DNA of 64,000 nucleotides, from NCBI RefSeq assembly GCF_050699935.1, contig NZ_JBOHGB010000021.1, forward strand, positions 3,245 through 67,244, in the 5' to 3' direction. The position numbers and the translations under genes were made by a program. This stretch comes from Actinophytocola sp. (GTDB taxonomy: Bacteria; Actinomycetota; Actinomycetes; Mycobacteriales; Pseudonocardiaceae). The notes beneath the pieces are model-generated. The model ran no database searches. It worked only from the letters and a program-made list of their open reading frames with translations, and was not told the origin of the DNA. This document shows positions 2,391 to 63,134 of the stretch, piece by piece (the first letter of the stretch is position 1; each line of letters begins with the position of its first letter).

Positions 2391-4078
2391 GTCTGTCAGT
2401 GGCCAGTGGGAAGTGGCTCTGTCCCACATTCCGTGATTCGGTGGTCGTTAGTCGCTGAGGAGGATGCGGAGTCGGAGCAGGTCGGGTTTGGCTCGGCCGT
2501 ACATTTGTCGTTTGATGGCCTTGATTCTGGTGACGTTGCCTTCGACGCCGCCGGAGTTGTAAGGCAGGGTGAGTCCGGCTGTGACGGCGTGCCAGTCCTT
2601 GCGTAGTCCGGTGGCGAAGGCGCGTAGCTCGCGGACGGGGCCGTTTTCGGCTTTGCAGACCCATTCTTCGAGTTTGGCGCCGCCGAGGTGGCAGAGCATT
2701 TTCGCGAAACTGGCGACGAGGTCGCGGGTGGCCGCCAGCTCCGCGCAGCGACCACAGGCGTCTTCCAGTCCGGCGCGGTCGTCGTCGGTGAGGTTGTCGG
2801 GGTTGCGGACGATCCAGCCGACGACGTCGCGCGCCTTCGGCGCTGGTGGTGGCTCTGGTTTGGTGAGCGTGGCACGCAGCTCGGCGGTGTAGCGGCGCAG
2901 GGTGCGGATACTGCCGTGGAACCCGCGGTCGCGGATTTCCTCGAGCAGCTGGTTGGTGCTGGTGCAGCCCTCCTCCCAGCGTTGGCGTAGGTAGGGCTTG
3001 TAGGGCTTCAGGGTGCTGGTGCGCCCGGTCGGGTTCGCGCCGATGAGCTCGTCCGGGCTGGCGGCCTGGGCGTAGCGGCGGACGGTTTTGCGGTCCAGCC
3101 CGAGGGTGTGGCTGATCGTGGTCAGTGACAGGCCTCGGGCGAGTAGCGCGTGAATTTCGGCATGCCGGGCGCGGGTCTGCTCGGCGCGTAGTCCCTCGAC
3201 TGCGTCACCGATCGAGGGTGTTGCGATGGACTGAGCCGGGTCGGGTTCGGCGCGCAGGCAGCGGCGATGCCGTCCGACCACGCGTTTCACCGCGCCGGTG
3301 AGGTTGTGCAGCAGGTGCCAGCGGTCGGCGACCTGCACGGCCGCCGGAGCGCCACGGTTGGCGCCCTCGGCATAGCATCCGGCGCGGTCGCGGCAGATCA
3401 CCTCAACCCCAGGGTGGGCGTCCAGCCACGTCGCCAGCGAGTCGGCCGACCGATCAGGCAGGACGTCGACCGGCTTACCGGACTCGATGTCGATCAGCAC
3501 TGTGCCGTAGTTGTGCCCGCGCCGCAGGGCGAAGTCGTCCACCCCCAGCACGCGCGGTGTCGACATCTCGGGCTCGGGCAGGTTACGGATCAACCGCAGT
3601 AACGTCATCCGGCTCACCGCAGCGGCCAGGTGACTGGTCAGCCGTGCGCCAGCACGGCCTCCCAGAGCGAGCGCGACCGCACGCGACGCCGCGGTGAGCA
3701 CCGTGCTGCGACGTCCATAACGGACGGTCAATCCCGGGACCTGTTCCGCGAAGGTTTCTTGGCGCACTCGAAGTTGTCGCACAAGAACGACGCACCCGCA
3801 ACTGGACCAGCATTTCCCGGCCGCCGACCGCGGTGTCGGACAACCGCCGCTCATAGCTGCTATGCACCCGACCCGACGCAACCCCACAGCCAGAACACGA
3901 GGCCTCGGCAGCCTGCGTGCTCGCCTCGATCCGCACCGACCGGCCCCTCGCGCACACACCATCGATCCGCACACCAGCCAAATGCGGGAACAGGACCCCT
4001 ACCAGACCAAGATCATCGCACTTCGATCATGATCAACTATCTGGGAGGGTCAGCTCCGACTGGCCCGCACTGACAGAC
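2391..4078 (-). mobile_element. ISL3-family insertion sequence (about 1.69 kb) with long imperfect terminal inverted repeats
   Basis: Encloses an ISL3-type transposase. Ends are 2391-2429 GTCTGTCAGTGGCCAGTGGGAAGTGGCTCTGTCCCACAT and the reverse complement of 4039-4078, GTCTGTCAGTGCGGGCCAGTCGGAGCTGACCCTCCCAGAT (about 31 matches over about 40 nt with a 3 nt gap). Confidence 0.75.
2448..3981 (-). pseudogene. ISL3 family transposase, apparently disrupted by two 1-nt deletions in the N-terminal zinc-finger region
   Basis: Main ORF 2448..3974 has the ISL3 core (RVLGVDDFALRRGHNYGTVLIDIESGKPVDVLPDRSADSLATWL...VQVADRWHLLHNL). The N-terminus (CSGCGVASGRVHSSYERRLSDTAVGGREMLVQLRVRR) is in ORF 3583..3981. 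The expected FLCDNFECAKK segment sits in the third frame around 3750-3790. Confidence 0.75.
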
Positions 4079-4776: not shown

Positions 4777-7099
4777 GGTTGGTGGGGCCAGCGGCTGTCG
4801 GCGATACTCCTGCCGGGGAGGCGCACCGGCTGTCGGAGCGCAGGCTGGTGGCGGTCGAGCAGTTGTTCACCGCTGAGCTGGCCTGTGCTCGTCATGCCGA
4901 GATCGTCGCTGAGCCGTCCGATGTGGTGCGAGAGCACCCGCTGCGTGAGCGGTTGCACGGCCTGTTGATGACCGCGTTGTACCGCGCTGGACGGCAGGGT
5001 GAGGCGCTGGCGGTCTATCGGGAGGTGCGGCGGACGCTGGTCAGAGAGCTGGGGTTGGAGCCGGGGCCGGACCTGCGGGCCTTGGAAGGGCGGATCCTGG
5101 CCGGTGAGCCGCTCGGTGCGCCGAGTACGGCGGCAACGCCTCTGCCGGCACCGGCTCAGCTTCCAGCCGATGTCTCCGACTTCGTCGGCCGAGCCGCCGA
5201 GTTGTCCAAAGTGGATGGTCTGTTGTGTGCGGGTGATCCGTCGGCTCGTCTGGTCGCGGTCACGGGCGCCGCTGGTGTCGGCAAGACGGCTCTCGCGGTT
5301 CGGTGGGCGCACCGGGTCGCTGGTCGCTTTTCCGGACGGTCAGCTGTATGTGGACCTTCGCGGTTATGGCCCGGACCAGCAGGTGACGCCGGGCGACGCT
5401 CTGGCGGGTTTTCTACGTTCCTTCGGCGTGCTGGGCGCCGCGATCCCTCCAGAGGACGCCGAGCGGGCGGCCATGTTCCGGACATTGGTCGCCGGCAGGC
5501 GAGTGCTGCTGTTGTTGGACAACGCGCGCACCGCGGACCAAGTACGGCCATTGCTGCCTGGATCCGCGTCGTGTTTCGTCGCGATCACCAGCCGGGACCT
5601 CCTGACCGGGCTGGCCGCGCGGGACGGGGTGCGCCGCATTGACCTGGACCGGATGACCCCTGCGGAGGCCGTCAGCCTGTTGGGCCGGTTGATCGGCGAC
5701 CACGCCCACGCCGACCAGGACGCGATCGCGCACCTGATCGAGCGGTGCGCCCGGTTGCCGCTGGCCCTGCGAATCGCCGCGGAGCGGGTCCGCGAGCGCC
5801 GGGGCAGGCGGGGTCGCCGACCTGGTTGCCGAACTCGGTGACGAGCAGGCCCGGCTGGACGCATTTGAGGTCGGGACCGACGCACACACCTCGGTGCGCG
5901 CGGTGTTGTCGTGGTCGTACCAGCAGCTAGAACCTGCCGCCGCCCGGCTGTTTCGGTTGTGCGGCCTGCATCCCGGCCACGATGTGGACGTCTACGCGCT
6001 CACCGCGTTACTCGGAGCCGACACGCCCCGGACGACTCGCCGCCTGCTCACCACCCTGACCCGTGCACACCTGATCGAGCGGACCGGCACGCACCAGGAG
6101 AGGTACCAACAGCACGACCTGTTGTGGGGGTACGCGGCCGAACTCGCCGAGTCCACTGACGGCGACGACAGCCGCGCCGCAGCGCTGACCAGGTTGTTCG
6201 ACCACTACCGGTACACCGCGTCGCTGGCAGTGGACTCCGTCTATCCCGACGGCGCGGACGCCAGGCCGCGGTTTCCGGAGCCGGCAACACCGGTGCCGGA
6301 TGTCCACACCACGAGCAGAGCCGAACACTGGCCGGAGGCAGAACACGCCAACCTGCTCGCCGCAGCCGTCCACGCCGGCAACCACGACTGGCCGCACTAC
6401 GCCGGCGACCTCTCGGCCACCCTGTACCGGCACATACGCCGCCGCGCCCGTCATGCCGACACCCACACCCTGCACAGCCAGGCGCTCGCGGTCGCCCGCA
6501 CGCTGGGCAACCGCGACAACGAGCAGACCGCACTAGCCGGGCTCGCGCACACCTACCAGCGGACCGGCCGTTACGAGAAGGCAGCCGAGCACTACCGGCA
6601 GGCTCTGACAGTGGCACGTGAGTGCGAGAACTCGCACGGCGAGCTGACCGCACTCGGCGGCCTGGCCGACAACCTGCTGCTCACCGGCAACTACCGACAA
6701 TCTGCCGAGTATTACCGCCAGGTACTCGCCGTCGCCAGCGAAACCGGCTCCCGGCTCGGCGGACTCAAGGCCATCGCCGGGCTCGGCCACTGCGACCTGT
6801 TGACCGATCGCTACGAGGACGCCGCCGGGCACTACCGGCAGTCGTTGGCCATGGCGCGGGAGATCGGGAACCGCTCCAGCGAGTTGTCCGCCATCGTCGG
6901 TCTGGGCCGCATCAGCAAGCGGATCGGCCACTACCAGCAGGCAGCGGACTACTACCAGGAAGCACTAGCCGGTGCCCGCGCGACTGGTCACCTCCTCGCC
7001 GAACTGTTCGCGCTGGCCCGCCTTGGCGACGTGTACGCGATGACCGGCCACTACGAGCAGGCGGAGGACAGATCGCGGACACGTCCACCGTCGGCATGA
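4777..7099 (+). pseudogene. AfsR/SARP-family regulator remnant (BTAD + NB-ARC ATPase + TPR), 5'-truncated with two frameshifts
   Basis: The BTAD region (PLRERLHGLLMTALYRAGRQGEALAVYREVRRTLVRELGLEPGPDLRALEGRIL), Walker A (VAVTGAAGVGKTALAVRWAH), NB-ARC continuation (LLLLDNARTADQVRPLL..CFVAITSRD) and TPR repeats are spread over three frames (ORFs 4668.., 4999.., 5894..). The shifts are at the T-run 5328-5331 and near 5800. The winged-helix DNA-binding domain is absent and the frame runs into the solo IS end. Confidence 0.75.
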
Positions 7100-7168
7100 C
7101 CGGTCATGTCAACCAGATCAATCCACCCGTGATCTGAAAGTCCACTTTGGACACTAGTGGGAGGTGTC

Positions 7169-7504
7169 ATGGGAATCCGGATGTCCTTGCTGCGCCAGCG
7201 AGTTCAGGAGCACGTCGCCCGAAGGATGGCGCTGGCCGAAAGCATCGACGCGGAGCTGTCCGGTCGGCGGTTCGCCGCGGCCTCGGACGGCGGGTTGGTG
7301 GTTGCCGAGGCCGACCACACCGCCCGCCTGGTCAACCTCCGGTTCACCGCAACCGCGTTGACCCGGAGCACGGGCCGTGCGCTGGGCACTCAGGTCGTGC
7401 AGGCAGTCACCCGCGCGCAGGCAGACGCACGCTCGGCGATCGAGAGTGCGGTACGGGCCAAGGCTCGGGAACACCAGATTGCGGTGTCGGAGCTTGCGCG
7501 ATGA
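7169..7504 (+). CDS. YbaB/EbfC-like nucleoid-associated protein (putative)
   Basis: ATG at 7169 follows GGGAGG. The pattern SDGGLVVAEADHTARLVNLRFTATAL....LGTQVVQAVTRAQADA resembles the YbaB/EbfC fold signature. Assignment is from motif memory only. Confidence 0.45.
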   Translation: MGIRMSLLRQRVQEHVARRMALAESIDAELSGRRFAAASDGGLVVAEADHTARLVNLRFTATALTRSTGRALGTQVVQAVTRAQADARSAIESAVRAKAREHQIAVSELAR

Positions 7505-7782
7505 GCCACTCGTACGAATTGCGCCTGTTCGACCACGACGACGTCGGCGACTACCGGGAAGATCGTTTCACGGTACGCAACGAACCGGCCGGCGACTACT
7601 TCGCGGCGGTGCCAGTCGACGCCAGTCTCGGCTGGGTCGGAGTCGACCGGACCGGCACGCTGACCGGCGTGGAACCGGACGGCCCGACGATGGCGAGAAT
7701 GCCCCAGGACCGTGTGGCGGGTCTGCTGATCGCCGCCATCAACCAGGCAGAACTCACGGCACGCCGCCACCTGCGACCGTGA
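7501..7782 (+). CDS. hypothetical protein (93 aa), translationally coupled to the preceding gene
   Basis: ATGA start/stop overlap at 7501-7504. Weak YbaB-like C-terminal pattern (VGVDRTGTLTGVEPD...RVAGLLIAAINQAE). Confidence 0.45.
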   Translation: MSHSYELRLFDHDDVGDYREDRFTVRNEPAGDYFAAVPVDASLGWVGVDRTGTLTGVEPDGPTMARMPQDRVAGLLIAAINQAELTARRHLRP

Positions 7783-16368: not shown

Positions 16369-16449
16369 CCCGATGCCCACGCAAGCCTGGAAGGACGCCT
16401 TCCGGACGTTCAATGCCATGATGGGCCCCTTCCAGGCATTGGCCCGCTC

Positions 16450-17886
16450 ATGAGGGCGCATCCGGCAGGGCCGCTGCACGCCGAAGTCCTGCCGCCGGGC
16501 AACACGGCCGGACCGCGACCGTCCACAGCGGACGAGCTGGACGAGCTGCTGCCCGATGTCTGGCCGCGCAACGCCCGGCGCGACGAGGCGGGCGTGGTCC
16601 GCCTGGCCGGGGTGGACGTGCGGCGCCTCGCGGAGGAATACGGCACCCCGCTGTTCGTCGTGGACGAGGCCGACTTCCGGGCCCGCTGCGCCGAGCACGC
16701 CGCCGCGTTCGGCGACCCGGCCCTCGTGCACTACGCGGCCAAGGCGTTCCTCTCGGTCCAGGTAGCCCGCTGGGTCGCCGAGGAGGGCCTGTCGCTGGAC
16801 GTGTGCAGCGGCGGCGAGCTGGAGATCGCGCTGCGGGCCGGCTTCCCGCCGGAGCGGATCACCTTGCACGGCAACAACAAGTCCGCACCGGAGCTGGCCG
16901 ACGGGGTGGCCGCCGGGGTCGGCGCGGTCGTGCTCGACTCGTTCTACGAGATCGCCCGGCTGAACCGGATCGCCCTCGACCAGGGCCGGGTGCAGGACGT
17001 GCTCGTGCGCGTGACGGTCGGGGTGGAGGCGCACACGCACGAGTACATCGCGACCGCGCACGAGGACCAGAAGTTCGGCTTCTCGCTCGCCGGCGGCCTC
17101 GCCGCGGAGGCCGTGCGCCGGGTCCTCGGCTTGCCCGGGCTGCGGCTCGTCGGGCTGCACAGCCACATCGGCTCGCAGATCTTCGACGCCAACGCGTTCG
17201 AGGTGTCCGCGCACCGGGTCATCGGGCTGCTCGCGGACCTGCGCGACGAGCACGGCGCGGACGCCGTCGCCAGTGTGTCCACTGTGGACCTCGGGGGCGG
17301 GCTCGGCATCGCCTACACCGCGGCGGACGACCCGCCGCCGCCCGGCTGGCTCGCCGAGCAGCTGCGCAACATCGTGGCGAAGGAGTGCGAGCAGGCCGGG
17401 CTGGACCTGCCGAGGATCGCGGTCGAGCCGGGCCGGGCCATCGTCGGTCCCGGCACCGTGACGGTCTACGAGGTCGGCACGATCAAGGACGTCGAGCTCG
17501 GCCACGGTTCCGCTCGCCGCTACGTCAGCGTCGACGGTGGGATGAGCGACAACATCCGCACGGCGCTCTACGACGCGACCTACGACTGCCGCCTGCTGTC
17601 CCGGTTCTCCGACGACGGCGGCCGCGGCGGCGAGGCCGTGCTGTCGCGGGTGGTCGGCAAGCACTGCGAGTCCGGCGACGTGGTCGTACGGGACTGCTGG
17701 CTGCCGGAGAACCTGGGACCCGGCGACCTTATCGCGGTGGCCGCCACCGGTGCGTACTGCTACGCGATGGCGTCGAGCTACAACCGGCTGCCGCGGCCCG
17801 CGGTCGTCGCGGTGCGCGACGGTGCGGCGTGGCTGCTGCTGCGCCGGGAGACCGTGGACGACCTCCTGCGGCTGGAGGTCTCATGA
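16450..17886 (+). CDS. lysA: diaminopimelate decarboxylase
   Basis: Contains [17 protein letters not shown]...HYAAKAF...[12 protein letters not shown]...HSHIGSQIF...VEPGRAIVG...GKHCESGD...[12 protein letters not shown]. The N-terminal start may be further downstream. Confidence 0.9.
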
Positions 17887-17888
17887 AC

Positions 17889-18010
17889 GGAACCCGCGAG
17901 TCCAACCGTCAGAACCCGCGAGTCCAACCGTCCGGGCCCGCGAGTCCGGCATTCGGCACGGGCGCGAATGTTGGACTCACCCGTCGGGAACGTTGGACTC
18001 GCGGGTTGGG
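17889..18010. repeat. cluster of five about 22 bp units (3 forward, 2 reverse) filling the lysA-hom spacer
   Basis: Forward units: GGAACCCGCGAGTCCAACCGTC at 17889-17910, AGAACCCGCGAGTCCAACCGTC at 17911-17932, and a partial unit at 17933-17954. Reverse units lie at 17966-17988 and 17988-18010 (GAACGTTGGACTCGCGGGTTGGG). Nested long hairpins are possible. Confidence 0.85.
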
Positions 18011-18016
18011 GGCGTC

Positions 18017-19315
18017 GTGAGTATCAAGGTCGCCATGCTGGGGTGTGGAACCGTTGGGGCGGAAGTGGTCCGGCTGCTGCACGAGCAGGCCGGCGACCTC
18101 GCCGCGCGCGTCGGCGGGTCGATCGAGCTGGCCGGGATCGCCGTGCGGCGGCCCAACCGGCACCCGGACGTGCCCGCGGACCTGCTCACCACCGACGCCG
18201 CCGGGCTCGTCGCGTCCGATGTGGACATCGTGGTCGAGGTGATCGGCGGCATCGAGCCGGCCCGCTCGCTGCTGACCGACGCGCTGCGCGCCGGCAAGTC
18301 CGTGGTGACCGCGAACAAGGCGCTGCTCGCCGAGCACGCCGCGGACCTGTTCGCGGCCGCCGGCTCCGCGGGCGCGGACCTGTACTTCGAGGCCGCGGTG
18401 GCGGGTGCGATCCCGCTGTTGCGGCCGCTGCGCGAGTCGCTCGCCGGCGACCGGATCACCCGGGTGATGGGGATCGTCAACGGCACCACCAACTACGTAC
18501 TGTCCGAAATGGACGCGTCGGGCGCGGGCTACGCGGAGACGCTCGACGAGGCCTCCCGGCTCGGCTACGCGGAGGCCGACCCGACGGCCGACGTGGAGGG
18601 CTACGACGCGGCGTCCAAGGCGGCCATCCTCGCCTCGATCGCCTTCCACACCAGGGTCACCGCGGCCGACGTGTACCGGGAGGGCATCACCGCGGTCACG
18701 CCGGCGGACATCGCCGCCGCGCGGACGCTCGGCCGGACGATCAAGCTGCTGGCCATCTGCGAGCGGGTGAACGGCGGCCCGGACAGCGCTGCCGGCGAGG
18801 CGGTCGCGGTCCGCGTGCACCCGGCGATGATCCCGCGCGGCCACCCCCTCGCGACCGTGGGCGGCGCGTTCAACGCGGTCTTCGTGGAGGCCGACGCGGC
18901 CGGCTCGCTGATGTTCTACGGCCAGGGCGCGGGCGGCTCGCCCACCGCGAGCGCGGTGCTCGGCGACCTCGTCGCGGTGGCACGCAACAAGGTCGTGGGC
19001 GGGCGCGGGCCGGGGGAGTCCTCTTACGCCGCGCTCCCGGTCCGCCCGATCGCCCAGGTGGACACCCGCTACCACATCAGCCTGGACGTGGCCGACCGCC
19101 CGGGTGTGCTGGCTTCGGTGGCCACGGTGTTCGCCGAGCACGGCGTGAGCATCGCCGCGGTCCGCCAGCAGGGCCGCAGCGCCGACGCGAGCCTGGTCAT
19201 CGTCACGCACTCCGCCCCCGACGCCGCCCTAAGGTCCACTGTCGACAAGATCGCGGGGCTGGCGGTCGTGCACGAGGTAGTCAGCGTGATGCGGGTAGAA
19301 GGCGAGGAACCATGA
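18017..19315 (+). CDS. hom: homoserine dehydrogenase
   Basis: GTG at 18017 gives [21 protein letters not shown]...[10 protein letters not shown]...[10 protein letters not shown]...[10 protein letters not shown]...[18 protein letters not shown], plus a C-terminal ACT domain. Confidence 0.92.
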
Positions 19316-20505
19316 GGTCAGATCGGACCCCCGGGCTCTCCAACCGCACCTCAGGGGAACGTGACGCAACCCAGCCACAAGTACGTGACCAAACAGCACT
19401 TTCCCTCCCCCAAGGTGACCACAACAATGAATTTCGGGGAGGCGGTACTGCTTGGCCCGGGGTGATCCACGCCTACTCCGACCGGATCCCGCTCCCGGAC
19501 GGTGCGAAGGTGGTGACCCTGCAGGAGGGCGGCACACCGCTGCTGGAGGCCCACCACGTCTCGGCGGCGACCGGCTGCCGGGTGCTCCTCAAGATCGAGG
19601 GCGCCAACCCGACCGGCTCGTTCAAGGACCGCGGCATGACCGTGGCGATCACGCACGCGCTGGCCACGGGCGCCACCGCGGTGATCTGCGCGTCCACCGG
19701 CAACACGTCCGCGGCGGCCGCCGCGTACGCCGCGCGCGCCGGGCTGACCTGCGCGGTCCTCGTGCCGAGCGGCAAGATCGCGATGGGCAAGCTCGCGCAG
19801 GCCGTCGCGCACGGCGCGCGGATCCTGCAGATCAGCGGCAACTTCGACGACTGCCTCGAGCTCGCCCGCAAGACCGCCGCCGAGTACCCGGTGGAGCTGG
19901 TCAACTCGGTCAACCCGGTGCGCCTGGTGGGGCAGCGGACCGCCGCGTGGGAGATCTGCGACACGCTCGGCCGCGCGCCCGACGTGCACTGCCTGCCGGT
20001 CGGCAACGCGGGCAACATCACCGCGTACTGGCAGGGCTACCGAGACTACGCCGAGGACGGCGTGGTCGCGGGGACGCCGAGGATGTTCGGCTTCCAGGCC
20101 GCGGGCGCGGCGCCACTGGTGCGCGGGGAGCCCGTGCGTGACCCGGACACCGTGGCCACCGCGATCCGGGTGGGCAACCCCGCCTCGTGGGCGGGCGCCA
20201 TCGCCGCGCGTGACGCGTCGGGCGGGCTGATCGACGCGATCACCGACGAGCACCTGCTGGCGGCGTACCACCTGCTCGCCACGCGCGAGGGCGTGTTCGT
20301 CGAGCCGGCGGCGGCGATCAGCGTGGCGGGCGCACTGGCGACGGCCGCGGACGGCCGGCTGCCGGCGGGCTCGCTCGTGGTCTGCACGGTGACCGGGCAC
20401 GGCCTCAAGGACCCGGACACGGCGCTCGCGGGCATGCCGCCGGTGGAGCCGGTGCCGGTGTCGCCCGGTGCGGTCGCGGCCGCGCTGGAGCTGACTCGAG
20501 CGTGA
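19312..20505 (+). CDS. thrC: threonine synthase (start uncertain: ATG 19312 overlapping the hom stop, or GTG 19462)
   Basis: Contains [26 protein letters not shown]...[17 protein letters not shown] (PLP lysine) ...[16 protein letters not shown]. The reading frame is open back through the repeat element to the ATG at 19312 (ATGA overlap with hom). Confidence 0.88.
19340..19445 (+). repeat. MITE/MIRU-like repeat, copy a (106 bp)
   Basis: CCAACCGCACCTCAGGGGAACGTGACGCAACCCAGCCACAAGTACGTGACC...ACAACAATGAATTTCGGGGAGGCGG. About 88% identical to the reverse complement of 49076-49180. Confidence 0.9.
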
Positions 20506-29564: not shown

Positions 29565-29654
29565 CGCCGGTCCGGAGCGTCGGACTCGCGGGTCTGGAGC
29601 GGTGGACGCGCGGTAGCCTGGCCCGACAACAGCGCCGAGAAGAGAGCTACTGGC

Positions 29655-49069: not shown

Positions 49070-49075
49070 CCGGGT

Positions 49076-49180
49076 CCGCCTCCCCGGAATTCATTGTGTT
49101 GGTTGCGTTGGGGACGGAAGGGTCTGTTTGGTCACGTACTTGTGGCTGGGTTGCGTCACGTTCCCCTTAGGTGCGGTTGG
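49076..49180 (-). repeat. MITE/MIRU-like repeat, copy b (105 bp)
   Basis: The reverse complement is CCAACCGCACCTAAGGGGAACGTGACGCAACCCAGCCACAAGTACGTGACCAAACAG...ACACAATGAATTCCGGGGAGGCGG. Confidence 0.9.
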
Positions 49181-49285
49181 GAAGGCCTCGGCTTGGTTTG
49201 ATCTTGGGTGTCACAAGGGGTTTCATGACGGCCACCTCCCGGCACCAGGGTGCACCCGCGGCGGGGCGTCGGGCTAGGCCGGTGA

Positions 49286-55242: not shown

Positions 55243-56050
55243 GGCCGTGGCGGACGGCGACGTGTCCGCACCGGACGGCGACGTCATGATCCACTTCGAG
55301 GACGTGGTCAAGAGGTTCGGCCACGTCACCGTGCTGAACGACCTGAACTTCGACGTGAAGCCGGGGGAGTTCGTCACGCTGATCGGGCCGAGCGGCTCGG
55401 GCAAGACGACGATCCTGCGGCTGCTGATGACCCTCGAACAGGTCACCGACGGCAAGATCTGGGTCGCCGGCGGGTGCCTGTCGCACATGAAGCGCGGCGA
55501 CAGGTTCGTGCCCGCGGACGACAAGCACCAGCGGGTCGTGCGCAAGCGCATCGGCATGGTGTTCCAGCAGTTCAACCTGTTCCCCAACATGAAGGTGATC
55601 CAGAACCTCACCGAGGCGCCGGTCCGGGTGCTCGGGCTGTCCCGGGCGGAGGCCGAGGAGCGGGCGCGCGAGCTGCTCGAGCTGGTGGGCCTGTCGGAGA
55701 AGATCGACGCGCACCCGACGCAGCTCTCCGGTGGCCAGCAGCAGCGGGTCGCGATCGCCCGTGCGCTCGCGATGCGGCCGGACGTCATGCTGCTCGACGA
55801 GGTGACCTCCGCGCTCGACCCGGAGCTGGTCTCCGGCATGCTGGCCCTGCTCAAGGACATCGCCCAGACAACGGACATCACGTTCCTCTGCGTGACCCAC
55901 GAGATGAACTTCGCCCGGGACGTGTCGGACCGGGTGCTGATGTTCGACGGCGGCCAGATCATCGAGGACGCGCCGCCGGACAAGCTGTTCACCGAGCCCG
56001 ACCACGAGCGCACCCGCTCGTTCCTGGCGGCGGTGCTCGACCGGGGCTAG
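55226..56050 (+). CDS. amino-acid ABC transporter ATP-binding protein (EhuA-like)
   Basis: Walker A GPSGSGKTT, Q-loop, signature LSGGQQQRVAIARAL and Walker B MLLDEVTSALD. Confidence 0.9.
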   Translation: MSEQSEAVADGDVSAPDGDVMIHFEDVVKRFGHVTVLNDLNFDVKPGEFVTLIGPSGSGKTTILRLLMTLEQVTDGKIWVAGGCLSHMKRGDRFVPADDKHQRVVRKRIGMVFQQFNLFPNMKVIQNLTEAPVRVLGLSRAEAEERARELLELVGLSEKIDAHPTQLSGGQQQRVAIARALAMRPDVMLLDEVTSALDPELVSGMLALLKDIAQTTDITFLCVTHEMNFARDVSDRVLMFDGGQIIEDAPPDKLFTEPDHERTRSFLAAVLDRG

Positions 56051-56060
56051 CGTCCTCGGT

Positions 56061-56828
56061 ATGTACTCCCACCTACTGGTCGGGACCGACGGGGACACGG
56101 TCCGGATCACGATGAACCGGCCGGCCCGGCGCAACTCGCTGTCGGCGGAGCACCTCGCCGAGCTGCTGGACGCCTTCCGGGCGGCCGGGGACTCGAAGGC
56201 CTCGGGCGTGGTGCTGGCCGGCGCGGGGCCGGTGTTCTCGGCCGGCCACGACTTCGGCGACGTGGCGGCCCGGGACCTGATGGGCGTGCGCGAGCTGCTG
56301 GCGCTGTGCACCGAGCTGATGCGCACGATCCAGTCGATCCCGCAGGTGGTGGTCGCGCGTGTGCACGGTCTGGCGACGGCCGCCGGCTGCCAGCTGGTGG
56401 CGTCCTGCGACCTGGCCGTCGCGGCGTCGTCCGCGGGGTTCGCGCTGCCGGGCGGGAAGGGCGGCTGGTTCTGCCACACGCCGGCCGTGCCGGTGGCGCG
56501 GTCGGTCGGCCGAAAGCGCCTGATGGAGCTGGTGCTCACCGGCGACGTGGTCGACGCCGCCACCGCCCTCGACTGGGGCCTGGTGAACCGCGTGGTCCCC
56601 GACGACGAGCTCGACGCCGCGGTCGACGAGCTGCTCGCGCGGGCCACCCGTGGCAGCCGGGCGAGCAAGGCGCTCGGCAAGCAGACCGTGTACGCCCAGC
56701 TGGACCGCCCGGAGGCGGACGCGTACGCCATCGCCCTGGAGGTCATGGCGGCGGCGTCGCAGCTCCCGGGCGCGCGCGAGGGCATGGCCGCCTTCCTGGA
56801 GAAGCGCAAGCCGGACTGGCTCGACTAG
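56061..56828 (+). CDS. enoyl-CoA hydratase/isomerase family protein
   Basis: Crotonase fold: ITMNRPARRNSL...VVLAGAGPVFSAGHD...VARVHGLATAAGCQLV..CD...EGMAAFLEKRKP. Confidence 0.85.
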   Translation: MYSHLLVGTDGDTVRITMNRPARRNSLSAEHLAELLDAFRAAGDSKASGVVLAGAGPVFSAGHDFGDVAARDLMGVRELLALCTELMRTIQSIPQVVVARVHGLATAAGCQLVASCDLAVAASSAGFALPGGKGGWFCHTPAVPVARSVGRKRLMELVLTGDVVDAATALDWGLVNRVVPDDELDAAVDELLARATRGSRASKALGKQTVYAQLDRPEADAYAIALEVMAAASQLPGAREGMAAFLEKRKPDWLD

Positions 56829-56829
56829 C

Positions 56830-56933
56830 CCGCCTCCCCGGAATTCAAAGTGTGGGTTGCGTTCCACCGGATGGTGGCGGTCAGGCGGTTGACTGTGGCT
56901 GGGTGCCGTCACGGTCCCCTGAGGTTGCGTTGG
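56830..56933 (-). repeat. MITE/MIRU-like repeat, copy c (104 bp)
   Basis: The reverse complement is CCAACGCAACCTCAGGGGACCGTGACGGCACCCAGCCACAG...GGAACGCAACCCACACTTTGAATTCCGGGGAGGCGG. It starts 2 nt after the TAG stop of the hydratase gene. Confidence 0.9.
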
Positions 56934-57018
56934 TCGGGACCAGACCTCGCACCGTGATCACGGGACACCAGCCTGGCGGTCCCCGGATGTGCCGGGGCGG
57001 TCGGCTAGCCTGCCCCGC

Positions 57019-58852: not shown

Positions 58853-60634
58853 ATGGCCCGCGAGTTCGGATGTGTCGGAGTGGTCGGGCTGGGCACGATG
58901 GGTGCCGGCATCGCCGAGGTCGTCGCCCGCACGGGCATCCGGGTGATCGGCGTCGAGCTCGACCGGGACTGCGTCGCCCGCGCCCGCGAGCACCTCGAGC
59001 ACTCCACCGAGCGGGCGCGCTCGGGCGGCAAGCTGGACGAGGCCGCCCGCGCGGCGCTGCTCGACCGGATCACCTACACCACCTCGCTCGCCGACCTGGC
59101 CGACGCCGACCTCGTCGTCGAGGCGATCCCGGAGAGCCTCGAGCTGAAGGCCCGGGTGTTCACCGAGCTCGAGGAGGTCTGCCGGCCGGACGTGATCCTG
59201 TGCTCGAACACGTCCTCGCTGTCGGTCACCGAGATCGGCGTGCACACCGGGCGGCCGGGCAAGGTCGTCGGGCTGCACTTCTTCAACCCGGCGCCGGTGC
59301 TGCGGCTCGTGGAGATCGTCCGCACGGTCGTCACCGAGCCGGACGTGATCGCCGACGTCGAGGCGTTCGCCCGCAAGCTCGGCAAGGAGCCGGTGGTGAT
59401 CGGGGACCGGGCCGGGTTCATCGCGAACGCGCTGCTGTTCGGCTACCTCAACCACGCCGCGTCGATGTACGAGTCCCACTACGCCACGCGCGAGGACCTC
59501 GACGCGGCGATGCGGCTGGGCTGCGGTTACCCGATGGGGCCGCTCGCGCTGCTCGACCTGATCGGGCTGGACACCGCGTACGAGATCCTCGAGACGATGT
59601 ACCGCCAGTCGCGCAACCGCCTGCACGCGCCGGCCCCGATCCTGCGGCAGATGATCACGGCCGGGCTGCTCGGCCGCAAGTCCGGGCGTGGCTTCTACTC
59701 CTACGACGGCCTGGACTCGCCGACGGTCGTGCCGGACGCGCTCACTCCCGTCCCGGCGCCGGCGGCCGCCGTGTCCACACGGGACGTCACGCGGGTCGGC
59801 GTGGTCGGCACCGGGACGATGGCGACCGGCATCGCGGAGGTGTTCGCGCGCAATGGGTTCGACGTCGTGCTGCGGGCGCGGTCGGGGGAGCGGGCGGACG
59901 CGGCGCTCGCGGCCGTGCGCAAGTCCATGGACCGCCAGGTCTCGAAGGGCCGGCTGTCCGAAGAGGATGGTGTGGCGGTGCTCGGCCGGGTCCGCGGCGT
60001 CGTCGAGTTCGACGAGCTGGCCGACTGCGACCTGGTGATCGAGGCGGTGGCCGAGGAGCTGGGGGTCAAGCGGGCGGTGTTCGGCGCCCTCGACGAGGTG
60101 GTCAAGCCGGGCGCGGTCCTCGCGACCACCACGTCGTCGCTGCCGGTGATCGAGTGCGCGGTGGCCACCTCGCGGCCGGCGGACGTCGTGGGGCTGCACT
60201 TCTTCAACCCGGCGCCGGTGATGAAGCTGGTGGAGGTCGTGTCGACGATCTCGTCGGCCGACGACGTGGTGGCGACCGCGCGTGCGGTGTGCCAGCGGGT
60301 CGGCAAGCATCCGGTGCACTGCGCGGACCGGGCCGGGTTCATCGTGAACGCCCTGCTGTTCCCGTACCTGAACGACGCGGTCAAGATGCTGGAGGCGCAC
60401 TACGCGGACGCCGACGACATCGACACGGCGATGAAGGTCGGCTGCGGGCTGCCGATGGGCCCGTTCGAGCTGCTGGACGTGGTCGGGCTGGACGTGTCAC
60501 TCGCGATCGAGCGCGCGCTGTACTACGAGTTCCGGGACGCCGGGTTCGCGCCCGCGCCGCTGCTGGAGCACCTGGTCACCGCGGGCCGGCTGGGCCGCAA
60601 GGCGGGCAAGGGCTTCCGGGACTACGGCGTGTGA
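58853..60634 (+). CDS. tandem 3-hydroxyacyl-CoA dehydrogenase (two complete HAD modules)
   Basis: Two NAD-binding starts (VGVVGLGTMGAGIAEV; VGVVGTGTMATGIAEV). Each is followed by S.TSSL...GLHFFNPAP...DRAGFI.NALL and a C-terminal dimerisation domain. Confidence 0.88.
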   Translation: MAREFGCVGVVGLGTMGAGIAEVVARTGIRVIGVELDRDCVARAREHLEHSTERARSGGKLDEAARAALLDRITYTTSLADLADADLVVEAIPESLELKARVFTELEEVCRPDVILCSNTSSLSVTEIGVHTGRPGKVVGLHFFNPAPVLRLVEIVRTVVTEPDVIADVEAFARKLGKEPVVIGDRAGFIANALLFGYLNHAASMYESHYATREDLDAAMRLGCGYPMGPLALLDLIGLDTAYEILETMYRQSRNRLHAPAPILRQMITAGLLGRKSGRGFYSYDGLDSPTVVPDALTPVPAPAAAVSTRDVTRVGVVGTGTMATGIAEVFARNGFDVVLRARSGERADAALAAVRKSMDRQVSKGRLSEEDGVAVLGRVRGVVEFDELADCDLVIEAVAEELGVKRAVFGALDEVVKPGAVLATTTSSLPVIECAVATSRPADVVGLHFFNPAPVMKLVEVVSTISSADDVVATARAVCQRVGKHPVHCADRAGFIVNALLFPYLNDAVKMLEAHYADADDIDTAMKVGCGLPMGPFELLDVVGLDVSLAIERALYYEFRDAGFAPAPLLEHLVTAGRLGRKAGKGFRDYGV

Positions 60635-60643
60635 GGTCTTGGG

Positions 60644-60751
60644 CCGACCATGGTGACCTCAGGGGTACCGTGACGGCACCCAGCCACAATCAGCCGGACA
60701 TCCGCAGCGTTCGCTGGGACGCAACCGACGCATTGAATTCCGGGGAGGCGG
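60644..60751 (+). repeat. MITE/MIRU-like repeat, copy d (108 bp)
   Basis: CCGACCATGGTGACCTCAGGGGTACCGTGACGGCACCCAGCCACAATCAGCC...GGGACGCAACCGACGCATTGAATTCCGGGGAGGCGG. It begins 10 nt after the dehydrogenase stop. Confidence 0.9.
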
Positions 60752-60863
60752 ACTGGTTCGGGTGACCGTCCGGGCAGATTGCGGGGTCGGACGACGCGCT
60801 CGTCGGGCGCTGGACGTCGAACGTCACGGCGCACTCGTGGCAGCGGAACTCGTAGGTCGGCAC
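60690..60863 (-). CDS. FmdB-family zinc-ribbon protein whose C-terminus is replaced by repeat copy d (possibly a pseudogene)
   Basis: GTG (complement of 60861-60863) gives VPTYEFRCHECAVTFDVQRPTSASSDPAICPDGHPNQ, then SASPEFNASVASQRTLRMSG encoded by the repeat. The usual ...VFKGSGFY tail is absent. Confidence 0.5.
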   Translation of the reverse strand: MPTYEFRCHECAVTFDVQRPTSASSDPAICPDGHPNQSASPEFNASVASQRTLRMSG

Positions 60864-60910
60864 GGGACCATTGTGCCCTGCCGCCTCGCCGGTCAGTACC
60901 GTGATCGACC

Positions 60911-61207
60911 GTGCCCCGCCGCAACCGTCACCGGACCCGGCGCGCCGAGCCACCCGGCCCGCCGGTCGTTGGCTGGCAGCAGCCCGAGTCCGCCCCGGAC
61001 GGCGAGTGGCTGGTTCGCCGGATCCCCGGCGACCGGTCGACGAAGCAGTACCGCTGCCCCGGCTGCGACCACGAGATCCGCCCCGGCACCGCGCACGTCG
61101 TGGTCTGGCCGGCGGACGACACGGGCGGCGTGGCCGACCGCCGCCACTGGCACGAGTCCTGCTGGCAGACCCGCCACCGGCGCCGCCCGACGAGCCGGTA
61201 CTGGTGA
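60911..61207 (+). CDS. conserved hypothetical zinc-ribbon protein (98 aa)
   Basis: Contains EWLVRRIPGDRSTKQYRCPGCDHEIRPGTAHVVVWPAD...RRHWHESCW (CxxC...H..C pattern). Basic termini. Confidence 0.55.
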   Translation: MPRRNRHRTRRAEPPGPPVVGWQQPESAPDGEWLVRRIPGDRSTKQYRCPGCDHEIRPGTAHVVVWPADDTGGVADRRHWHESCWQTRHRRRPTSRYW

Positions 61208-61273
61208 GCTCGCCAGAACGAGAGTCGCCTGGAGGCAGCGGGTCACGACCCGCCGCCACCAGGCGACGCCGCC

Positions 61274-61444
61274 TTACGGCGGCTTGCGTCCGCGCCTGAT
61301 GCTGAGCTGCTGGAGGATCTTGATCGCGTGCTCGCGACCAGCCTTGTCAGCCCGCAACGACCAGATGATGACCACGATCTCGGTCAGAATCCGGAGCGCC
61401 AACGCCGCACTCACCAACACACCAACGAGCCACAGCTCACCCAC
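61274..61444 (-). CDS. small membrane protein (56 aa) with a strong RBS, lower-GC region
   Basis: GAGGAGAAAGGAG lies 8 nt upstream of the GTG. Sequence: VGELWLVGVLVSAALALRILTEIVVIIWSLRADKAGREHAIKILQQLSIRRGRKPP, one TM helix plus a basic tail. Confidence 0.5.
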   Translation of the reverse strand: MGELWLVGVLVSAALALRILTEIVVIIWSLRADKAGREHAIKILQQLSIRRGRKPP

Positions 61445-61679
61445 GGCGGGGGTGCTCCTTTCTCCTCTGATCCGGCCGATCGACCCCCAAGTCGCGACGG
61501 GCCGGCCCAGTAGGAGATGCGCTCGCGCTGTGTAGTTGTGCGTTTTCAGGATGCCCGAGGTTCGTCGCCACGGCAACGACGGGACGCGGCCGAGAAAATC
61601 TTGTGGGCGGGTGTCGATTCGGTCGTCGCTGCTTCGACGTATGGGTGAAGGAGCAAGACGGCACAGATCGGAGAGTTCG

Positions 61680-61982
61680 GTGTCTCACCCACTCGGTTCG
61701 CTAGCGGACAACCTGACCGCCTACGCGATCTACGCGACCGCGCAGGCCGAGATGCGGCACGCCTACTCGCTGATCGACGCGGGTGACTTCGCCGCCGCGG
61801 CCGCGGAGATCGCGTCCGCGGCGCGGGCCGCGGACGTGCTGGCCAACTTCAGCGCGTCGGCCGCCGTGGCACGGACGGCGCACTGGCGGCGCGTCGCCAC
61901 CGCCCGTCGGCAGTTCGCCGTGCGCGCCCGCGCGCATGCCGATTCCGCACACAACGACCGGCCGCGACTGGCAGCCGCCTGA
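61680..61982 (+). CDS. hypothetical Ala-rich protein (100 aa)
   Basis: GTG follows GGAGAG. Sequence: VSHPLGSLADNLTAYAIYATAQAEMRHAYSLIDAGDFAAAAAEIASAARAADVL... Low-complexity helices with no family recognised. Confidence 0.35.
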   Translation: MSHPLGSLADNLTAYAIYATAQAEMRHAYSLIDAGDFAAAAAEIASAARAADVLANFSASAAVARTAHWRRVATARRQFAVRARAHADSAHNDRPRLAAA

Positions 61983-61996
61983 GAGACAAGGGAATT

Positions 61997-62078
61997 CCGT
62001 GACCTCAGGGGACCGTGACGCAACCCAGCCGCACCATCCGCCGGAACGTAACCAACACTTTCAATTCCGGGGAGGCGG
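61997..62078 (+). repeat. MITE/MIRU-like repeat, copy e (about 82 bp, shortened core)
   Basis: CCGTGACCTCAGGGGACCGTGACGCAACCCAGCCGCACCATCCGCCGGAACGTAACCAACACTTTCAATTCCGGGGAGGCGG. The left boundary is uncertain. Confidence 0.85.
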
Positions 62079-63134
62079 GAATGTGCGGGCCGCCGCCAGG
62101 AACGCGTCGTTCTCCTCCGGGAGCCCGATCGTCACCCGGGCACCGTCCCCGACGAACGCCCGCACGACGATCTTCTGCTCCAGGCAGTGCTGGTTGAACG
62201 CGGCCGTCCGGTCGCCGAGGAGCAGCCACACGAAGTTCGCCTGCGACGGCGGCACCTCGTAGCCCATCTCCAGCAGCGCCGAGCGCACCCGCTCCCGCTC
62301 GACGGCCACCGGCCCGCACCGGGCCAGCAGCTCGTCGGCGGCGTCCATGGCCGCGATCGCCGCCGCCTGCGCCATCCGGTTCACCGCGAACGGGATGCCG
62401 ACCTTGCGCACGGCGGCCGTCACTGCGGGCGGCGCCACCGAGTAGCCGACTCGCACCCCGGCCAGCCCGTACGCCTTCGAGAACGTGCGCAGGACCGCGA
62501 GGTTCTCCCGGCCCTCGGCCAGCGCGAGCCCGTCGGGCACGTCGGGGTCGGTGGCGAACTCGCGGTACGCCTCGTCCAGGACGACCAGCACGTGGTCCGG
62601 CACGCGGTCGAGGAAGCGCTCCAGCTCCGCGGTGCGCAGCGCGGTGCCGGTCGGGTTGTTCGGGTTCGCGATGAACAGCACCCGCGTGTCGTCCGTGACC
62701 GCGCCGGCCATGGCGTCGAGGTCGTGCCGGTAGTCCGCGGTCAGCGGCACCCTGACGTCGCGTGCCCCGACGATCTGCGTGATGATCGGGTACGCCTCGA
62801 ACGACCGCCAGGCGAACACGACTTCCTGGCCCTCGACGCACATCGCCTGGAGGACCTGCTGGGCCAGCGCCACCGAACCGGCGCCGATCGCCACTCGTTC
62901 CTCGGGCTGGCCCAGGTACGCCGCCGTCTTGGCCTGCACGTCGTCGTTGGCCATCTGCGGGTACCGGTTGACGTCGGCGGCCGCGTCCGTGATCGCGGCG
63001 AGCACGGACGCCGGCGCGTGCGTGGAGACTTCGTTGCTGGACAGCACGATCGCGCCGGGGATCTTGCGGCCGGGCACGTAGTCCGGGAGTTCGGCGAGGT
63101 CGGCTCGGACGGAGATGGGCATGCCCCGCATCAT
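62061..63134 (-). CDS. class-II (HisC/Pat-type) histidinol-phosphate/aromatic aminotransferase
   Basis: Contains LSSNE.....P.SVL.AI......NRYP...GAGSVAL...VLFIANPNNPTG...VVLDEAYREF...LRTFSKAYGLAGVRVGY (PLP Lys). Start at ATG 63134 or 63122. The last 6 codons and the stop lie inside repeat copy e. Confidence 0.85.
   Translation of the reverse strand: MMRGMPISVRADLAELPDYVPGRKIPGAIVLSSNEVSTHAPASVLAAITDAAADVNRYPQMANDDVQAKTAAYLGQPEERVAIGAGSVALAQQVLQAMCVEGQEVVFAWRSFEAYPIITQIVGARDVRVPLTADYRHDLDAMAGAVTDDTRVLFIANPNNPTGTALRTAELERFLDRVPDHVLVVLDEAYREFATDPDVPDGLALAEGRENLAVLRTFSKAYGLAGVRVGYSVAPPAVTAAVRKVGIPFAVNRMAQAAAIAAMDAADELLARCGPVAVERERVRSALLEMGYEVPPSQANFVWLLLGDRTAAFNQHCLEQKIVVRAFVGDGARVTIGLPEENDAFLAAARTFPPPRN

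Follow-up and report, generated by a model that had tools for sequence, protein, structure and literature searches.

A dispersed repeat at the hom-thrC junction of Actinophytocola is probably translated as an N-terminal tail of threonine synthase

We analysed a 64,000-nucleotide (nt) stretch of DNA from Actinophytocola sp. (contig NZ_JBOHGB010000021.1, positions 3,245 to 67,244; hereafter the window), in which one copy of a dispersed repeat element lies between the homoserine dehydrogenase gene hom and the threonine synthase gene thrC. Comparison with related genomes makes it very probable that ThrC starts at ATG 19312 and that about 45 codons supplied by the element are translated with it, giving a 397-amino-acid (aa) enzyme with a disordered and dispensable N-terminal tail. 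This would settle the start codon of an essential biosynthesis gene that has been annotated in two ways (397 and 347 aa). It also offers a natural example of a selfish repeat tolerated in a housekeeping gene, which would be so because only the reading frame of the repeat, and not its sequence, is selected. The presence or absence of the insert among thrC genes of 95-98% identity is in effect a natural dispensability experiment, and the case bears on start-site annotation in antibiotic-producing actinomycetes and on how repeats enter operons without polar effects.

The features of the junction are collected in Table 1. The original prediction, made from the letters of the window, had placed an ATG of the thrC frame across the hom stop codon and had described that frame as open through the whole repeat as far as a W-P-G-V-I motif. 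Both statements were confirmed. The hom stop (TGA 19313-19315) overlaps ATG 19312-19314, the letters 19310-19317 reading ccATGAgg, and the frame from this ATG runs through the repeat copy of about 130 nt into W-P-G-V-I and on to 20502 with no stop, its translation being exactly the peptide that had been given. The region 19300-19470 contains GAAGGCGAGGAACCATGAGGTCAGATCGG. Between the hom stop and the body of thrC the only ATG, GTG or TTG codons in frame are ATG 19312 and GTG 19462; the latter lies past W-P-G, as had been said, with a GGAGG 19 nt before it, and no in-frame start other than ATG 19312 stands 5′ of the Trp codon in the window. The GAGGA motif 5′ of the ATG is kept in filled and empty relatives, whose alignment reads GGCGAGGA(A/G)C(C/A)ATGA. 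That the segment is a real repeat was likewise upheld: the window holds five copies in both orientations, and a 43-nt piece of the copy at thrC (copy a) had no chance match in 100 shuffles. Copy a was matched by nhmmer at 19325-19450, and the limits of the insert were taken from the comparison of filled with empty junctions.

The gene is that of threonine synthase (ThrC), a pyridoxal phosphate (PLP) enzyme of fold type II, in a hom-thrC-thrB operon; its neighbours are hom and a GHMP kinase gene. The PALP domain (PF00291) was found by Pfam at residues 68-362 (E = 3.8e-66), the ThrC of M. tuberculosis (2d1f) matches residues 47-393 (E = 1e-148), and the region of the PLP-lysine motif (S-F-K-D-R-G) is invariant in 42 aligned sequences, that of the window included. 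The most similar ThrC proteins belong to Actinophytocola and other members of the Pseudonocardiaceae. The original prediction had W-P-G lying near the N-terminus of actinobacterial ThrC, and this was borne out: it stands 3-19 residues from the annotated N-terminus in 114 of the 120 closest homologues and is residues 12-14 in M. tuberculosis ThrC. Among the other six homologues, three have Q/H/R-P-G, and in three the start was called at a Val codon, which gives 345 aa. Homology to ThrC proteins of solved structure starts at W-P-G.

The same junction was found in relatives in three states: filled by the element, with a remnant of it, and empty. Filled junctions, most of them on metagenome contigs, were present in five other assemblies with four distinct sequences: L002 (a JGI metagenome), L003 (an ENA contig starting inside the element), L103 (Actinophytocola sp. 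metagenome-assembled genome (MAG) SMAG_U3958), L121/L122 and L123. These carriers are close Actinophytocola-like relatives. Remnants were seen in L001, which retains MRRDQAALSLPRGDHTAHPGWPGVI and has its thrC annotated from the ATGA, and in L005, which retains only AGGTCG, with the product MRSVVRPAW. The empty junctions (L006, L007, L008 and L124-L126) read GA(A/G)GAA(C/G)CATGAC(A/T)GC... and encode M-T-A-A-(A)-(G)-V-R-P-(G/S)-W-P-G-V-I. Because the empty close relatives read so, the ancestral junction can be reconstructed as an ATGA overlap with a short N-terminus of about 8-10 residues before Trp. The comparison with relatives lacking the element, which had been proposed as a check, therefore identifies the segment as an insert into a site of the type MTAA(A)(G)VRPGWPGVI and not as an ordinary ThrC N-terminus. 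The ATGA overlap is found in every relative with the hom stop on its contig, filled or empty, and the outgroup L004 has GTGA. Scans of metagenome contigs with the hom end joined to ATGAG, and with the element 3′ end joined to WPGVI, gave no match.

The distance from the hom stop to the Trp codon is 140 (window), 158, 155, 140, 140, 59 and 23 nt at the filled and remnant junctions and 26, 29 and 8 nt at the empty ones; L003 was left out of this count, as its contig begins inside the element and its hom stop is off the contig. Every distance equals 2 mod 3, as an in-frame ATGA start requires, and no stop occurs in the thrC frame at any filled, remnant or empty junction. These lengths were reached by various insertions and deletions (indels). 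The window has lost 18 nt between the element and Trp, and in L123 18 nt are gone from within the conserved core. Between L002 on the one side and L103 and L003 on the other there is a difference of 3 nt. In L001 and L005 the deletions are large, and their sum is in frame. L103 has gained 3 nt at the 5′ junction and then lost 1 and 2 nt about 67 nt apart, so that it reads most of the element in its other open frame (PQGNVTQTSHKYVPKQH) before regaining that of thrC. L121 has gained about 2 nt at the 5′ junction and 1 nt at the 3′ junction, with a spacing from GGCGG to TGG of 11 nt instead of 7, 22 or 25 nt, and from the core to the 3′ end it, too, reads the element in that other frame. We interpret L103 and L121 as two lineages with compensating frameshifts. 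Were the insert untranslated, each history would end in frame with a chance of 1/3, and the chance of at least six distinct histories all doing so would be about 1e-3, a figure good to an order of magnitude and approximate only, since the lineages are related by descent. Elsewhere in the window, copies b, c and d contain stops in the frame used at thrC. These data indicate that the thrC frame through the insert has been kept by selection.

The codons for W-P-G point the same way. In the filled and remnant lineages they follow TGG CC(C/G/T) GG(G/C/T), the sets being TGG CCC GGG, TGG CCG GGC, TGG CCG GGT, TGG CCT GGC, TGG CCG GGG, TGG CCT GGG and TGG CCC GGG. All of the variation, at least four changes, falls at the two four-fold sites among the nine bases, for which the chance is about (2/9)^4 = 0.002. 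The pattern indicates that W-P-G is under protein-level selection in the insert-carrying genomes; translation must then start upstream of it, and ATG 19312 is the sole candidate in the window. The original prediction had offered two options. A repeat-encoded extension with hom-thrC coupling preserved is strongly supported by the ATGA overlap, the open frame and the in-frame lengths in relatives; a truncated start at GTG 19462 is disfavoured by the in-frame indels and the synonymous-only changes in the W-P-G codons.

Public records hold both the 397-aa and the 347-aa version of this exact ThrC, on 27-kb and 67-kb contigs. The ATGA start was used by one public annotation of the window thrC, and also for the proteins P0003 and P0138. 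Besides the shared ancestry already mentioned, several observations weigh against a start at ATG 19312. The extension lacks codon adaptation (G + C content at third codon positions, GC3, is 0.51, versus 0.97 in the thrC body), and its amino-acid sequence is unconserved. Gene callers picked GTG 19462 in one annotation of the window thrC and the equivalent GTG in several relatives. The ThrC of Thermus begins two residues before the equivalent of Pro49, and given that N-terminus a ThrC starting at Val51 might still fold. Finally, a mini open reading frame (ORF) in the +1 frame of the element ends at TGA 19463-19465, overlapping GTG 19462, and might feed reinitiation there.

A ThrC of 347 aa starting at GTG 19462 would begin M-I-H-A-Y and lack W-P-G, and the element would be an untranslated or incidentally translated spacer. 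Such a start could be driven by the GGAGG of the element, which in many copies stands 7-10 nt before the start of the downstream gene, or by termination-reinitiation at the GTGA after the +1-frame mini-ORF, the continuation of the hom frame being open through the element up to that stop. The 347-aa annotation and the near absence of residues before the equivalent position in Thermus ThrC are also in its favour. However, the Shine-Dalgarno spacing would be 19 nt here and 34-37 nt in L002, L103, L003 and L123, against the usual 5-10 nt, and in L103 the conserved internal GTG shares the frame of thrC, so that a relay from the mini-ORF would be broken. Moreover, this start leaves unexplained the frame-preserving indels, the compensating frameshifts of L103 and L121 and the synonymous-only variation of W-P-G. 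The 345-aa ThrC calls were considered as support for it and were rejected, since the same internal GTG is called at the insert-free sites of L004, L124, L125 and L126, which have a plain ATGA/GTGA start; a call at this position is a habitual gene-caller error. On balance, we regard initiation at GTG 19462 as improbable. Nor is it likely that both isoforms are made, mostly from ATG 19312 with some internal initiation at GTG 19462. The GGAGG and the GTGA are present for this, and the fused element copies of L110, L075 and L065 (see below) keep an in-frame start just past the Shine-Dalgarno site of the element, but the spacing at thrC is poor and the comparative signals need the long form only. 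That a repeat in a metagenome bin led to a misassembled junction, or that thrC is decaying, can hardly be believed. The window does come from a MAG, being near-identical to contigs of a cave-metagenome run (no RNA run was found to contain this genome), and repeats can give chimeric joins, but synteny is preserved to either side, the junction recurs in five independent assemblies from different samples, and the thrC body has its GC3 of 0.97, all invariant ThrC residues and no stops.

For the preferred start at ATG 19312 we propose the following course of events. The insertion has left the ancestral initiation region (GAGGA-N4-ATGA) untouched, and the element of about 110-140 nt sits just past the start codon, within the first two ancestral codons and in frame. 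Ribosomes that end hom, or that bind the GAGGA, would initiate at ATG 19312, translate the approximately 45 element codons and continue into W-P-G-V-I and the PLP enzyme, yielding the 397-aa ThrC.

The tail itself is best described as a disordered appendage of which only the frame would be selected. In an AlphaFold2 model built on the 42-sequence alignment, the predicted local distance difference test score (pLDDT) stays at about 30 over residues 1-45 and exceeds 90 from about residue 47 onwards. The amino-acid sequence of the tail is not conserved: the window and L002 differ by many non-synonymous changes, and L103 and L121 read other frames. In a phmmer search of 1.84 billion representative proteins, the first 54 residues gave three weak matches only and no protein family; one match is a 100-aa ORF call through another copy of the element, and the other two are weak and repetitive, one of them junk. 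A protein domain encoded by the insert was therefore rejected: there is no recurrent homologous peptide, and L103 and L121 read another frame. Relatives with 95-98% identical thrC lack the insert, which indicates that the tail is dispensable, and we infer that it is neutral, neither helping ThrC nor much harming it. The predicted protein P0123, 2616 aa long, resembles the peptide encoded by the element over 9 separate stretches (29% identity, E = 2e-10); it could be the translation of a tandem array or simply a spurious ORF.

Filled and empty junctions occur side by side on the thrC tree. The filled L123 and the empty L006 have thrC genes that are 98% identical, the filled L121 and the empty L008 have thrC genes that are 95% identical, and both are well-supported sister pairs. 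The approximately unbiased (AU) test rejects the filled and remnant sequences as one clade (p = 7.6e-5), and the tree requires at least five changes of insert state. On these two grounds, one insertion with nothing but decay after it was rejected as a full account of the history; precise loss, repeated gain at a hot spot and allelic recombination would each fit. Most thrC copies share an A(A/G)GGTGACC variant where the family consensus has AACGCAACC, which hints at common descent of the thrC copies.

The element belongs to a large family. A scan with a 23-nt core, using one genome per species, found at least 112 loci in at least five genera, the matches listed including loci in Actinophytocola, Saccharopolyspora, Amycolatopsis arida, Actinocrispum and Actinosynnema, and nhmmer found a total of 145 copies in the DNA examined. 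The element is 110-140 nt long and consists of a nearly invariant block, ACCTCAGGGGA(A/C)CGTGACG(G/C)(C/A)A(C/A)CCAGCCAC, a variable middle, ACGCAACC and a 3′ end CGG(G/A)GAGGCGG. Its 33-nt core evolves two to three times slower than synonymous sites. Among the window, L002 and L103, divergence at the thrC junction is 11-17% in the element, whereas four-fold sites of thrC differ by 27-30%; because the element diverges less than these sites, its core would be constrained at the nucleotide level or homogenised by conversion. The L001 remnant, in which both conserved blocks are lost, diverges at about the neutral rate.

A structured RNA or riboswitch was rejected as an identity for the element. 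Copy a gave no Rfam match at the gathering threshold or at E<=1 and no significant fold compared with shuffles (z = +0.78), and RNAalifold on 60 copies gave -4 kcal/mol with no covarying pair and no consensus structure. Neither is it a palindromic MITE (a miniature transposable element of the inverted-repeat type) or repetitive extragenic palindrome (REP), as the alignments of the element showed no terminal inverted repeats and there was no stable stem-loop. It is multi-copy and dispersed, codes for no transposase and has filled and empty orthologous sites, and in these respects it is of MITE type. No promoter- or terminator-like site was found within it.

Of 115 classifiable copies, 69 have a same-strand gene upstream and 35 have both neighbours on the same strand; an opposite-strand gene lies upstream of 18 copies and downstream of 53. 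In 21 of the 127 copies analysed, copy d of the window among them, the element carries what we call a relay ORF, with [AG]TGA at both ends. Its start forms [AG]TGA at the 5′ edge of the element, mostly with the TGA of the upstream gene and usually behind a Shine-Dalgarno-like motif; in the second copy of L103 the stop of argS is TAG, a few nt upstream of the relay start. The relay ORF has 44-63 codons and ends at a TGA overlapping the ATG or GTG of the next gene, 7-10 nt past the GGAGG, and in many other copies too the GGAGG of the element is the Shine-Dalgarno site of the downstream gene. The family thus appears, from this arrangement, built to be translated. The copy at thrC has the 5′ overlap, and its ORF is fused to thrC instead of being terminated; it would be a variant of the relay ORF with no stop before the downstream gene.

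Other copies are fused in frame to downstream genes in the same manner. In the cultured Saccharopolyspora oryzae WRP15-2 (L102:1916-3088, minus strand) a NAD-dependent epimerase has 44 element-encoded residues at its N-terminus, and its Epimerase domain, with the Rossmann motif, starts three residues past the element-encoded part. The next in-frame start lies 88 nt later, past the GxxGxxG motif; because no other in-frame start precedes that motif, this N-terminal fusion is apparently obligatory. Further fusions were found with KdpB (L109), a xanthine-dehydrogenase-type subunit (L044), a histidine phosphatase (L083), CbiX (L111), an ABC-2 permease-like protein named by sequence only (L065), a nonribosomal peptide synthetase (L110) and an E2 acyltransferase (L075), most of which have an alternative start just past the Shine-Dalgarno site of the element.

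As to the sites of insertion, (C)ATGA flanks many of the Saccharopolyspora copies at both ends, and cTA(A/G) ... ACTAG encloses many copies of one Actinophytocola subfamily. The filled/empty thrC pair L123/L006 shows no clear target-site duplication, at most AC(T/C). A TA or CTAG target as in IS630/mariner-type elements is hinted at and is a lead only. We tentatively suggest, aware that the odds are somewhat against it, that the element is a mobile operon-junction cassette for coupled gene boundaries, which would land at or beside ATGA or GTGA overlaps and bring an open frame and a GGAGG with it, so that translation of the downstream gene would continue, through a relay ORF or, as in thrC, through fusion in frame. 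Its core would then serve as a sequence-specific site for a transposase, a recombinase or a host factor, and not as an RNA structure or a peptide. Two further observations were made on the occurrence of the element. Tandem head-to-tail copies, in 2-3 units with a period of about 145 nt, are found in L021 (about 3040-3460), L062 (about 7330-7530), L018 (6087-6254) and L078 (3855-4070), and recall VNTRs of the MIRU type. A filled site in L045 (5183-5373) corresponds to an empty one in the window (56049-56070), between co-directional genes; the L045 insert is antisense to the genes and has CTAG on both sides.

Table 1. Positions of the hom-thrC junction features and of the repeat copies in the window
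Feature	Position	Strand	Remarks
hom (homoserine dehydrogenase)	17750..19315	+	longest ORF; stop TGA 19313-19315; Pfam Homoserine_dh, NAD_binding_3, ACT
Shine-Dalgarno-like GAGGA	19304..19308	+	within the 3′ part of hom; 4 nt separate GAGG from ATG 19312
Proposed thrC start ATG	19312..19314	+	overlaps hom stop as ATGA; putative translational coupling
thrC (threonine synthase), long form, 397 aa	19312..20505	+	stop TGA 20503-20505 overlaps thrB GTG at 20502
Element-derived insert (repeat copy a)	19315..19450	+	ThrC residues 2 to about 46; 3′ boundary uncertain by about 5 nt
Most conserved family block, ACCTCAGGGGAACGTGACGCAACCCAGCCACAA	19348..19380	+	nearly invariant across genera; 60-copy alignment and genome scan
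GGAGG at element 3′ end	19438..19442	+	read as Gly-Gly here; 19 nt before GTG 19462
W-P-G-V-I	19453..19467	+	where the homologous and confidently folded body of ThrC begins
Alternative start GTG (Val51)	19462..19464	+	would give 347-aa ThrC
Repeat copy b	49071-49194	-	5′ of molybdopterin oxidoreductase gene; TAA in the frame open in copy a
Repeat copy c	56822-56949	-	between two + strand genes, antisense to both; stop in copy-a frame
Repeat copy d	60632-60758	+	directly 3′ of 3-hydroxyacyl-CoA dehydrogenase gene stop
Repeat copy e	61998-62084	+	5′ end truncated

The relay ORF of copy d has 44 codons and runs from GTG 60631, which forms GTGA with the dehydrogenase stop, to TGA 60763-60765, again in a GTGA. 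An ORF at 60762-61535 was considered as the coupled gene downstream of it and was rejected, as it has no coding signature and no Pfam match; the region 60760-62060 has no obvious gene. At the 5′ edge of copy b the Shine-Dalgarno motif and ATGA are present and the relay frame is broken by the TAA. The first in-frame ATG of the molybdopterin oxidoreductase ORF (49094) is CAATGAATTC inside copy b, and about 50 residues before the molybdopterin oxidoreductase domain are rich in Arg and Pro.

The true start of hom is probably near 18017, judging from the 432-aa call in L001, where the gene order is lysA-hom-thrC-thrB. The spacer between lysA and hom in the window (17889-18010) is made up of direct and inverted copies of a unit of about 22 nt, CCCGCGAGTCCAACCGTC, which is a repeat different from the thrC element. 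The same spacer forms inverted repeats with a complementary segment at 29565-29613 of the window. The argS-lysA junction is only 3 nt long in L004 (7258-7260) and holds a copy of the element in L103 (about 6988-7126, minus strand) and L001 (7142-7272), together with an ORF of 45 codons that stops at the ATGA of lysA. In the window a spacer of 80 nt lies at this junction (16369-16449); it keeps a relic of the former lysA start (CCGATGCCCACGCA vs CCGATGCGCGCGCA) besides a new start ATGAGG, and may be a decayed copy of the element.

No description of this Pseudonocardiaceae repeat family was found in the literature searched, and its parts have parallels in known systems. The original prediction had called either form of thrC start unusual for an essential biosynthetic operon. 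The junction is real, but that wording has to be toned down, because cases of repeat ORFs joined in frame to a gene, at its 5′ or its 3′ end, are already documented (Delihas 2011, PMC3184786), and the ORFs of mycobacterial interspersed repetitive units (MIRUs) are summarised there as overlapping the upstream stop and the downstream start with their ends (Supply et al. 1997). As far as that summary describes MIRUs, the present element resembles them as a short (40-140 nt) interspersed actinobacterial repeat and in having, here in 21 copies, an ORF that overlaps the upstream stop and the downstream start. MIRUs lie within operons, where they are co-transcribed and share the orientation of the flanking genes; part of the copies of the present element are oriented likewise and would be co-transcribed too. 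Like MIRUs, it also forms tandem copies at some loci (L021, L062, L018). Unlike them, it has Pseudonocardiaceae hosts, a strong 3′ GGAGG and a 33-nt core nearly invariant across genera; the ORF of its thrC copy is fused to the gene, and many of its copies lie in non-operon or antisense contexts. The likeness claimed is one of arrangement, in that the element works like a MIRU, and not one of membership. By this analogy, the Pseudonocardiaceae appear to have in this family a counterpart of the mycobacterial MIRUs.

In-frame repeat ORFs are also cited in PMC3184786 for the Rickettsia palindromic elements (RPE; Ogata et al. 2000), for RUP, BOX and SPRITE of pneumococcus (Croucher 2011) and for the Bordetella BRE (Hot 2011). 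In the terms of those citations, the present element is likewise a non-autonomous repeat in frame in protein genes, housekeeping genes included, giving a tolerated surface or terminal peptide. RPEs and classic MITEs are palindromic and form hairpins, whereas this element has no significant fold, and its thrC insertion is not internal, as in RPEs, but at codon 2, at a stop/start overlap. The REP2 repeats of Neisseria carry a ribosome-binding site together with a promoter (Morelle et al. 2003, via PMC3184786). The present element is similar to REP2, so far as the latter is characterised there, in lacking terminal inverted repeats and in supplying the downstream gene with a ribosome-binding site and, in many cases, with its start region. 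It differs in that no promoter-like site was found in it, and the account of REP2 given in that source does not describe them as bridging stop/start overlaps. Compared with an ordinary actinobacterial hom-thrC-thrB operon, the window has the same gene order, GAGGA-N4-ATGA junction and ThrC body, and differs by the approximately 45 repeat-derived codons between Met1 and W-P-G. What stands out beside these systems is the unusually clear evolutionary signature, including compensating frameshifts, and the presence/absence polymorphism of the insert in an essential gene.

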